A stretch of DNA of 62,539 bases. Origin: a virus. Its lineage: Duplodnaviria; Heunggongvirae; Uroviricota; Caudoviricetes. Of the stretch, positions 58,831-61,233 are shown piece after piece (the first letter of the stretch is position 1; every line of letters starts with the position of its first letter). The stretch lies in IMG/VR virus record IMGVR_UViG_2634166512_000005. One strand, given 5' to 3'. A program made the position numbers and the translations under genes. The notes under the pieces were generated by a model. That model was given only the letters and a program-made list of their open reading frames with translations, ran no database searches and was not told the origin of the DNA.

Positions 58831-61233
58831 ATGAGCACTGATAAAGAAGAAATTGCACTGTATTACGAAGCCAAAAATGACAAAGTCAGAAAACGCCTTG
58901 GGATTAAAGGCGGTTTTTACTGGCGCACAGCAAAAAAATTATCGGTTGCAATATCACGGGGTGTTGTCGCAATGGACGATGCTGGATTTGACGAAGAGGA
59001 TTTCAAAAAACCTGTTCGCGTGAATTTGCCCATTGTTAATGACCTGCCGCCTGAAGGTGTGTTTGATACCGAATTCTGCAACCGCTATGAAAAAGGTGGA
59101 GAAGATGGCATCACAATGATATTTATAGCGCCTTCCCCCTCAGTTCAGGACAAACCAGCCAGCACTGACAATACCAACGTCAATGGCGAAGACATGGCTG
59201 AGATTGAGGATAATATGCTCCTGCCGATTTCCGGTCAGGAACTGCCCATTCGCTGGCTTGCGCAACATGGCAGCGAAAAACCGGTAACGCACGTTTCACG
59301 GGAAGAACTTCAGGCATTACATATCGCACGAGCTGAAGAACTGCCTGCTGTTACTGCCCTGGCTATTTCCCACAACACAAAGCTGCTCGACCCGCTGGAG
59401 ATTCGCGACCTTCAAAAACTGGTACGCGACACAGACAAAGTTTTCCCTAATCCCGTTAATTCCAGTCTGGGGTTAATGACTGCTTTTTTCGAAGCATACC
59501 TGGACGCTGACTATACCGATCGAGGTCTGCTGACAAAAGAGTGGATGAAAGGAAATCGTGTTTTACGCATCAGCCGCACGCCATCCGGCGCTAATGCTGG
59601 CGGAGGAATTCTTACCGATCGCGGTGAAGGTTTTGTCCACGATGATGCGTCAGTGGAACGTGACGTTGCCGCTGGCGTTCTGGCCCGTTCAATGGACATC
59701 GATATTTACAATCCACATCCGGCACACGCCAAACGCATTGAAGAAATCGTTTCAGAGAATAAGCCGCCCTTTTCTGTTTTTCGTGACAAATTCATCGCCA
59801 TGCCTGGTCACCTGGATTATTCCCGCGCGATAGTGGTTGCATCCGTGAAAGAAGCACCAATTGGTATCGAGGCTACTCCCCACCGTGTTACCGAATATCT
59901 GAACAAAGTACTGACCGAAACCGACCATGCCAACCCTGATCCAGAAATCGTGGATATTGCCTGCGGTCGCTCCTCTGCTCCAATGCCGCAGCGTGTAACA
60001 AAAGAAGGAAAACAGGATGATGAAGAAAAACCGCAGCCAACTGGCGCAATGGCAGATGAACAGGCAACGACTGAAGCAGTGGAACCGGATACAACTGAAC
60101 ATAATCAGGACACGCAGTCGATGGATGCTCAGCCACAGATAAATTCTGTTGATGCGAAATATCAGAAACTGCGTGCAGAACTCCATGAAGCCAGGAAAAA
60201 CATTCCCCCCAAAAATCCTGTCGATGCAGATAAATTACTGGCTGCTTCTCACGGAGAATTTGTTGAAGGGATTAGCGATCCGAATGATCCGAAATGGGTG
60301 AAGGGGATTGAAACCCGCGATTCTGTGAACCAGAACCAGCACGAATCGGAACAAAACGAGCCGGAAACGAAACAGCCTGAACCAGAAGAGCAACAAGAAC
60401 CGGAAAAAGTCTGCACCGCCTGCGGTCAGATCGGCGACGGCAACTGTCCTGACTGTGGCGCGGTAATGGGCGACGCAACATACCAGGAAACATTCAACGA
60501 AGAAAGCCAGGATGAAGCCCGGGAGAAAGATCCAGAGGAAATGGAAAGTGCCGTATACCCGAACAAGGAGTGCTCCGAAGGCGATCAACATGCCAATGGC
60601 AATAATGAAACAGGCGAGACAGCAAATCCCTTAATTAAGGTGAACGGTCATCGCGAAAGCACATCCACCAGCAGGTTGTGGCACCATCTGATGATTGACC
60701 TTGAAACAATGGGCAAAAATCCTGATGCGCCAATAAACGCTCTGGCCGGTAAGTTTTTTGATCCGGCAACCGGAGAGATGGGGCCAGAATTCAGCAAAAC
60801 TATCGATCTGGAAACCGCGGGCGGAGTCATCGATCGGGACACCATTAAGTGGTGGCTGAAACAGTCACGGGAAGCACAATCAGCCATTCTGACCGATGAA
60901 ATCCCGTTGGATGACGCACTGTTGCAATTACGGGAATTTATCGACGAAAACTCCGGTGAATTTTTTGTTCAGGTCTGGGGAAATGGAGCCAACTTCGACA
61001 ACGTGATTTTACGCCGTTCATATGAACGGCAGGAGATCCCCTGCCCGTGGCGTTACACCAATGATCGTGATGTAAGAACGATTGTTGCCCTGGGGCTGGT
61101 GATGGATTTCGATGCTCGAAGTGTCATCACATTTGAGGGTGAACGCCATAATGCCCTGCACGATGCGCGTTACCAGGCAAAATACGTTTCAGCTATCTGG
61201 CAAAAACTGTTCCCGAATCAGGCTGATTTTTAA
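58831..61233 (+). CDS. large early protein: RecE-N-terminal-like region, acidic linker, zinc ribbon and C-terminal DnaQ-like DEDDh 3'-5' exonuclease domain
   Basis: 800 aa; exo motifs [32 protein letters not shown]...CPDCG ribbon. Confidence 0.7.

Follow-up and report, generated by a model that had tools for sequence, protein, structure and literature searches.

In this study, we analysed a complete gene at 58831-61233 (+ strand) of a 62,539-nucleotide stretch of DNA from a virus of the Caudoviricetes (IMG/VR record IMGVR_UViG_2634166512_000005; hereafter the window), whose 800-amino-acid (aa) product joins a RecE-like N-terminal region to a C-terminal DEDDh exonuclease domain. The closest described systems bear on its two ends and on its locus. 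The structure of DexA, from phage T4, has been solved (Kang et al., NAR 2025, PMC12153337), and a homologue from Escherichia coli, EcD, was reported to digest T4 DNA, which contains 5-hydroxymethylcytosine (5hmC), and to protect cells from T4, under the name "HREX" (PMC12153337). Both DexA and EcD are DNA exonucleases; a Trp (DexA W152, kept in EcD) was assigned to 5hmC recognition, and the loss of a tetramer-forming Asp (D90 in DexA, A78 in EcD) was said to make EcD specific for modified DNA (PMC12153337). In E. coli K-12, DicA represses the PL-like promoter from which the dicBF operon of prophage Qin is expressed (PMC6832061). Judged from its sequence, the window protein is an uncharacterised DEDDh exonuclease of the PF16473 class on a RecE-family scaffold, both of them known kinds.

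The DEDDh domain and the RecE-type scaffold

The C-terminal domain is a DnaQ-fold DEDDh exonuclease of the PF16473 class, as the initial annotation had proposed from three motifs. The PF16473 (Rv2179c-like) profile matches aa 618-790 over its entire length (positions 1-177 of 177; E = 4.3e-60; 202.9 bits against a cut-off of 27), and the catalytic pentad is complete (D623, E625, D723, H773, and D778), its members lying in the motifs DLET (623-626, within MIDLET), WGNGANFD (716-723), and HNALHD (773-778). Among 30 homologues, D623 and D723 never vary and E625, H773, and D778 hardly do; in the alignment to T4 DexA, residues D7, D119, H186, and D191 of the phage enzyme fall on D623, D723, H773, and D778. 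An AlphaFold model of aa 603-800, also with 30 homologues, reached a predicted local distance difference test score (pLDDT) of 86 and a predicted TM-score (pTM) of 0.83. With this model Foldseek retrieved T4 DexA as the best solved match (8KEL/8KEN; E = 2e-11; TM-score 0.71), followed by RNase T, oligoribonuclease (Orn), and REXO2 (all four at probability 1.00), and many of the fold matches in BFVD are phage "exonuclease"/DexA proteins. T4 DexA is likewise the only significant sequence match to the window protein in the PDB (phmmer, E = 3e-5). On these residues and this fold, the domain is predicted to be an active, metal-dependent 3'→5' exonuclease.

The preceding 600 residues are RecE-like, again in keeping with the initial annotation. 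Pfam places Exonuc_VIII (PF06630) at aa 56-189 (E = 5e-34), and the NCBIfam equivalog for ExoVIII/RecE (NF007259) aligns its model positions 1-602 of 877 with aa 1-602 (1074.7 bits); the whole-protein score is nonetheless under the equivalog cut-off (1074.7 vs. 1269 bits). Model positions 603-877, which correspond to the PD-(D/E)XK 5'→3' nuclease, are unmatched in the window protein, BLASTP homology to RecE of Rac-SA53 stops at aa 601, and a tblastn search of the whole window with the RecE nuclease domain found none (best E = 1.9). The sole nuclease domain of the protein is thus DEDDh, and it holds no PD-(D/E)XK 5'→3' double-stranded DNA (dsDNA) exonuclease. Two outcomes could have overturned the initial annotation, a C-terminal domain outside the DEDDh families or a standard RecE nuclease fold; both were looked for and neither was seen, the DEDDh family match being strong and the RecE PD-(D/E)XK fold absent.

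The initial annotation had also remarked that no recT/bet-like gene is adjacent, and this held in every search made: tblastn with Rac RecT over the whole window found no RecT (best E = 0.88), the annotation of two RefSeq loci whose exonuclease genes are 100% and 99.5% identical to ours lists no annealase, PHROG scans of the unnamed early open reading frames (ORFs) in the window matched no annealase family, and eight syntenic loci from five genera hold no annealase. The window protein is neither RecE nor half of a RecET-type pair, and its locus is a separate class of left operon without an annealase; the RecET-type module against which the gene had initially been measured is not the appropriate frame. 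The likeness to RecE of Rac is otherwise considerable, since the N-terminal ~600 residues are homologous and both are large early-left-operon genes of RacR/DicA-type prophages. Yet where RecE has a PD-(D/E)XK 5'→3' dsDNA exonuclease domain, the window protein has a DEDDh domain of opposite polarity, and whereas Rac carries recE-recT-ralR-ydaC ahead of xis-int, no recT, ralR, or ydaC lies downstream of the exonuclease in the window.

The gene and the parts of its product are laid out as follows:

58831-61233, + strand: complete gene for a RecE-family scaffold with a DEDDh 3'→5' exonuclease (ORF list, RefSeq match, domains)
58840-59130, + strand: N-terminal alpha/beta domain, aa 4-100 (AlphaFold pLDDT ~88)
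58996-59397, + strand: PF06630 Exonuc_VIII match, aa 56-189 (Pfam), of which aa 101-189 are predicted to be disordered
59398-59970, + strand: helical core of the RecE N-terminal region, aa 190-380 (pLDDT 84-94 over aa 270-380)
60217-60633, + strand: central module, aa 463-601, mostly disordered and acidic, common to RecE, the Tritos-type exonuclease, and the window protein
60406-60468, + strand: Cys4 ribbon, C528-C531 and C539-C542, two CxxC pairs inside the central module
60670-61221, + strand: DEDDh (DnaQ-fold) 3'→5' exonuclease domain, aa 614-797 (PF16473, AlphaFold, Foldseek)

In the full-length AlphaFold model (mean pLDDT 58.7), four folded pieces (aa 4-100, aa 190-380, a marginal Cys4 ribbon at 526-546, and the DEDDh domain at 614-797) are separated by ~310 residues of predicted disorder. 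Across 24 diverse relatives the alpha/beta domain keeps a motif around DLPxEG...RY, in which P73, E75, and Y86 hardly vary. Profile searches against PDB sequences with the alpha/beta domain and with the helical core returned nothing significant and no solved relative. What had been described as one acidic low-complexity linker proved to be three stretches (aa 382-444, 457-525, and 547-613), each with 14-17 Asp and Glu against 5-6 Lys and Arg and with pLDDT below 50. The CxxC...CxxC ribbon, likewise noted at the outset, is present, and its Pfam match is weak (Zn_ribbon_3 at aa 525-546, E = 0.19); the same motif occurs in Rac-SA53 RecE and in the exonuclease of phage Tritos, and the central module with its ribbon is absent from the Citrobacter and Salmonella homologues.

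Among characterised relatives, T4 DexA, a phage DEDDh 3'→5' DNase, provides the solved structure closest to the window domain. At 22-25% identity, however, it is a stand-alone protein of 227 aa from a virulent phage, with additional loops and a switch between dimer and tetramer, and its roles in the scavenging of host DNA and in the homing of introns are without an evident parallel in a lambdoid prophage. Rv2179c of Mycobacterium tuberculosis, the founder of PF16473, belongs to the same family as the window domain in a comparison made via the Pfam profile alone; it is cellular, stand-alone, and an exoribonuclease according to Pfam, whereas the window protein is a prophage fusion. An EcD-like gene was located via the published primers (forward 19/19 nt, reverse 19/20 with a 1-nt indel) on the chromosome of E. 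coli 2013C-3033 (locus L022, 5989-6570). Its product is a "3'-5' exonuclease" of 193 aa, and it lies in a P2-like prophage, within an early operon whose other genes are for an integrase, repressor-like helix-turn-helix proteins, a Dam methylase, a ParE-like protein, and a replication endonuclease; EcD therefore probably belongs to a prophage and not to the core genome of the host. This allele is also a PF16473 member, 39% identical to window aa 618-793 (E = 2e-36) with identical catalytic residues. Both proteins are thus prophage-encoded, EcD as a stand-alone protein of ~190 aa in a P2-like early operon and the window protein as a fusion in a lambdoid left operon. The two differ at the positions discussed by Kang et al.: in alignments at 22-39% identity, the 5hmC-reading Trp of DexA (W152) and EcD aligns with T743 of the window protein, a position that varies (T/C/S/Y/H) among fused E. 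coli forms, and where EcD has lost the Asp (A78), the window protein retains D695.

Mosaic structure and exchange of C-terminal heads

The window gene is a four-piece mosaic. Residues 1-228 are 87% identical to the protein of phage vB_EcoS-640R1 and barely match RecE; residues 229-462 are 86% identical to Rac-SA53 RecE, 47% to 640R1, and 18% to Tritos; residues 463-601 are 67-73% identical to all three (67% to Rac-SA53 RecE, including the Cys4 ribbon, and 72-73% to Tritos and 640R1); and residues 602-800 share 86% identity with Tritos and 640R1 and show no relation to RecE. The window, Tritos, and 640R1 accordingly have the central module and DEDDh head in common. Toward the N-terminus, 640R1 is close in its first 228 residues and diverged in the core, whereas Tritos and Qin carry another N-terminal ~460 aa, of the YdfE type, only remotely related to the window protein in the core. 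Placed on the model, the joints around aa 462 and 601 fall within predicted disordered linkers. The ratio of nonsynonymous to synonymous substitution rates (dN/dS, Nei-Gojobori) is 0.12-0.32 in every one of the four segments, and therefore all modules have been maintained by purifying selection.

A search of 1.84 billion representatives with aa 1-601 found only 226 relatives of the scaffold, and those of at least 450 aa were examined for what they carry at the C-terminus. DEDDh heads were found in 13 and RecE nucleases in about 20, and two are joined to RecT sequence; seven share a conserved tail that Pfam matches best, though below threshold, to Rad52_Rad22, and about 12 have a different conserved, unannotated tail. 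In many representatives the YdfE-type N-terminus and the RecE-type core match overlapping regions, and the two are therefore remote homologues. The tail of the seven (P0249, P0273, P0311, P0317, P0321, P0332, and P0366, all outside the window) spans ~260 aa with the motif KKSLTDAxKKALSxLGFxADIxxGLYD. Its assignment as a Rad52-like annealase was set aside as a lead only, the Pfam match being sub-threshold (E = 0.01; 16.2 vs. 20.3 bits) and a profile of the seven sequences having no PDB match. A second conserved tail class without annotation includes P0284, P0329, P0365, and others (phrog_26058).

The early-left operon and the distribution of the gene

The ORF at 58831-61233 (+) comprises 800 codons and a stop; its ATG is the first start codon past the upstream stop and is preceded by GAGG at 8 nt. 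The gene is already catalogued and very common, and as a sequence it is no discovery. Its DNA is 100% identical to the RefSeq coding sequence (CDS) "exonuclease" WP_039264392.1, which appears as a single CDS with identical coordinates in RefSeq genomes; databases name it "3'-5' exonuclease" or "RecE family exodeoxyribonuclease", a PHROG scan of the 800-aa protein returned "exonuclease" families 607, 2082, and 20376, and the PF06630 and PF16473 pair is already precomputed for many database proteins. Its surroundings are the following:

56784-56812, + strand: promoter-like site, TTGACA-17-TATAGT, 11/12, a consensus match only, downstream of racR
58365-58553, + strand: dicB, directly upstream in the same operon
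58550-58738, + strand: ydfD-like DUF1482 gene, 62 aa, 47% identical to K-12 YdfD
61300-61551, + strand: DUF4224 gene in the xis position, directly downstream, overlapping the start of int
61520-62539, + strand: tyrosine integrase gene, downstream of the DUF4224 gene

The placement between ydfD and xis given in the initial annotation is thereby borne out. From left to right the operon reads racR, the promoter-like site, a DUF1391/ydfA-like gene, a 123-aa ORF, a shortened DicF-like region, dicB, the ydfD-like gene, the exonuclease, the DUF4224 gene, and the integrase, the exonuclease being its last large gene. We infer that the site at 56784-56812 may serve the operon ending in exo-xis-int as its early-left (dicBp/PL-like) promoter; promoter-like sites are not commoner in the region than in shuffles (7 observed vs. 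9.9). A promoter of the exonuclease gene's own was sought and rejected, the best candidate being a 9/12 consensus match at 58786-58813 where promoter-like sites occur at shuffle level. Because the homologous dicBF operon of K-12 is repressed by DicA, the exonuclease would be expressed only on derepression.

Some further features of the transcript were noted. The DicF-like region upstream of dicB (58148-58187) keeps the 5' sequence UUUCUGGUGA and a terminator hairpin (58162-58181), without 19 aligned bases of the K-12/Tritos DicF (a 2-base and a 17-base gap); Rfam reported DicF at neither threshold beside the exonuclease gene, and the alignment identifies instead a shortened DicF allele. The small RNA (sRNA) family STnc100 matches 58180-58397 below threshold (Rfam, 33 bits vs. 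a gathering score of 47; E = 5e-5), a match that covers the dicB leader and the beginning of the gene. In the interval that separates the exonuclease stop codon from the xis-position gene, 61249-61297 folds into two adjacent GC-rich hairpins without a U-tail (minimum free energy -24.7 kcal/mol; z = -1.97), at which xis-int expression could be subject to processing or attenuation.

The initial annotation regarded a DEDDh nuclease in this position as atypical, and the survey does not agree. Over a set of 5426 complete E. coli genomes, the full-length gene, counted at 80% coverage or more, occurs in 513, and the DEDDh segment alone in 4026 (74%), in 7963 places and up to 7 per genome; at every locus examined, xis-int directly follows the DEDDh gene. 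The position is conserved in functional phages and in Qin: phage Tritos and K-12 Qin have the order dicF-dicB-ydfD-exo-xis-int, vB_EcoS-640R1 has dicB-ydfD-exo-xis-int with dicF unannotated in its record, and phage mEp460 has a match to the DEDDh head. The "exonuclease VIII" genes of Tritos, 640R1, and mEp460, together with K-12 ydfE, form the true orthologous group of the window gene. Qin's ydfE pseudogene, which IS2 interrupts, matches the Tritos exonuclease over its first 256 aa at 99% identity and is a truncated remnant of the exonuclease gene. Full-length PF06630-PF16473 fusions also occur in prophages of Citrobacter, Atlantibacter, and Salmonella, immediately ahead of Exc and Int in a short left operon without an annealase, and true stand-alone DEDDh genes (190 aa) occupy the same position in other Salmonella prophages. 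Apparent stand-alone or split versions from E. coli (456, 157, and 183 aa; P0075; L007 737-3127) were discarded as artefacts of N runs and contig ends in draft assemblies.

Elsewhere in the window, an stx2a operon lies at 44965-46547 on the - strand (stxB 44965-45234, stxA 45246-46205, with three phage tRNA genes before it at 46296-46547), which makes the host element an Stx2a-converting prophage; in the RefSeq loci that match the window, yccA stands just past the integrase. The left arm from racR to int (56000-62539) is duplicated at 7024-13568 with 99.56% identity (8 mismatches and 20 gaps, amounting to 21 gapped bases). The second exonuclease copy (~9855-12262) has zero substitutions and six 1-nt indels that split it into ORFs at 9858-10562, 10574-11635, and 11541-12035, a pattern that looks like long-read indel errors or very recent decay. 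Window positions 1-7007, with tail fibre/J genes, abut this second left arm directly, so that the window contains either a prophage in tandem or partial form or a join made in assembly; strain RM10466 is not colinear with it.

Function of the exonuclease and its wider meaning

On balance we lean toward an early-lytic DNA exonuclease of 3'→5' polarity, tethered to a RecE scaffold and independent of any annealase. According to this model, the product would be a large early-left-operon protein of a Rac/Qin-type lambdoid prophage, here one with stx2a, built like beads on a string from the alpha/beta domain, the helical core, the acidic disordered linkers with their Cys4 ribbon, and a DexA/Rv2179c-class DEDDh end. 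It would be produced only once a RacR/DicA-type repressor is lifted, along with DicF, DicB, YdfD, Xis, and Int, and would act as a Mg2+-dependent exonuclease removing nucleotides at free 3' ends, most probably of DNA; DNA is the likelier substrate because DexA and EcD are DNases and because the scaffold otherwise bears DNA-recombination heads. The exonuclease would act alone, not in an exonuclease-annealase pair, with the RecE-type scaffold providing localisation or partner binding and the swappable head the chemistry. Its purpose may be to trim the 3' ends of replication or recombination intermediates, or to degrade linear host or foreign DNA. Several points weigh against this model. The early timing of expression is borrowed from K-12 dicBF, the full-length model is of low confidence outside the four folded pieces, and a classical recombination role is not obvious because a 3'→5' nuclease makes no 3' tails for annealases or RecA. 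Rv2179c, the namesake of PF16473, is an exoribonuclease by the Pfam description, and the substrate may instead be RNA. The literature yielded no functional study of a fused RecE-scaffold/DEDDh protein, neither biochemical nor genetic, and the scaffold is without an assigned function even in RecE (PMC11611040).

Other roles can be set against the same evidence. An early-expressed position and frequent swaps of the C-terminal head, often a mark of arms-race genes, would suit an anti-defence nuclease that destroys retron multicopy single-stranded DNA (msDNA), the cDNA of defence reverse transcriptases, or restriction-generated ends, the more so as the scaffold-sharing RecE of Rac degrades retron msDNA and has been described as an anti-restriction gene against type III systems (bioRxiv 10.1101/2020.06.22.160242). 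In that study, however, RecE was the retron trigger and not an escape factor (bioRxiv 10.1101/2020.06.22.160242), and the window gene is nearly ubiquitous rather than patchy and under ordinary purifying selection in all modules, such that we regard this role as unlikely. The initial annotation had mentioned anti-defence as one option beside DNA processing. Exclusion of the HREX type, in which the protein, like EcD, would degrade the hypermodified (5hmC-type) DNA of T-even-like invaders and so protect the lysogen or the induced cell, draws on the relatedness of the DEDDh domain to the EcD-like P2-type prophage exonuclease, on the reported action of EcD against T4 (PMC12153337), and on dicB, which is itself an exclusion gene in the same operon (PMC6832061). 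Yet T743 stands where DexA W152 and the EcD Trp are said to read 5hmC, and D695 is retained where EcD has A78, both soft calls from alignments at 22-39% identity; this residue pattern argues mildly against exclusion, the operon would be repressed in lysogens, and a PADLOC scan of the 800-aa protein matched no defence-system model, leaving the proposal a rather slim chance.

An exoribonuclease that trims RNA 3' ends, for instance in the processing or turnover of the early-left transcript and the DicF sRNA, would fit the naming of PF16473 after the Rv2179c-like 3'-5' exoribonuclease, the appearance of RNase T and oligoribonuclease among the top structural matches, and the DicF-like sRNA of the same operon. 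Nevertheless DexA and EcD, the characterised enzymes closest to the window domain in sequence and fold, are DNases (PMC12153337), and the scaffold is elsewhere joined to DNA-recombination heads; DEDDh enzymes often take both substrates and sequence alone does not decide, yet we consider a dedicated RNA role improbable. The protein might also be half of an unrecognised two-component recombinase, its partner being an annealase of some new family whose gene lies elsewhere in the prophage, or which comes from the host or another prophage, with RecET-like recombination as the outcome. The RecE scaffold, a position where lambdoid phages hold recombination genes, and the fusion of some scaffold relatives to RecT or to the sub-threshold Rad52 tail are compatible with such a pair, but no RecT was detected in the window and no annealase is annotated in close RefSeq prophages or in the eight syntenic loci from five genera, and 3'→5' polarity leaves 5' overhangs, the wrong product for known annealase-driven recombination; we hold it very unlikely. 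Finally, a four-piece mosaic whose K-12 counterpart is a truncated pseudogene and whose second copy in the window is broken by 1-nt indels could be read as a non-functional remnant of illegitimate recombination between prophages. This is scarcely credible for an intact ORF with conserved catalytic residues and dN/dS of 0.12-0.32 per module, carried by plaque-forming phages and by 74% of E. coli genomes: selection and prevalence argue strongly against decay.

The preferred model, an early-lytic DNA exonuclease on a RecE scaffold, admits a bolder extension that we put forward tentatively, namely that the RecE-like N-terminal scaffold (alpha/beta domain plus helical core) may be an autonomous adaptor through which exchangeable DNA-processing heads reach one shared target inside the infected cell. 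Such heads might comprise the 5'→3' PD-(D/E)XK nuclease, the 3'→5' DEDDh nuclease, possibly a Rad52-like annealase, and at least one further module, a list to which we give equally guarded credence. As a sequence feature the window gene is ordinary, an intact and annotated prophage gene found in most E. coli genomes; it is nonetheless among the most widespread of E. coli prophage genes, Stx phages of enterohaemorrhagic E. coli (EHEC) included, and it has gone unstudied probably because K-12 holds only the truncated ydfE. Our findings also bear on the claim that DexA homologues are anti-T4 defence enzymes, given that the far commoner lambdoid version is without the proposed 5hmC-reading Trp. 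The occurrence of nucleases of opposite polarity on the same RecE-type scaffold offers a handle on the role of the dispensable N-terminal ~600 residues of RecE. If the adaptor proposal is true, its target would most naturally be sought with the DEDDh form, the most frequent one in E. coli, and not with RecE itself.

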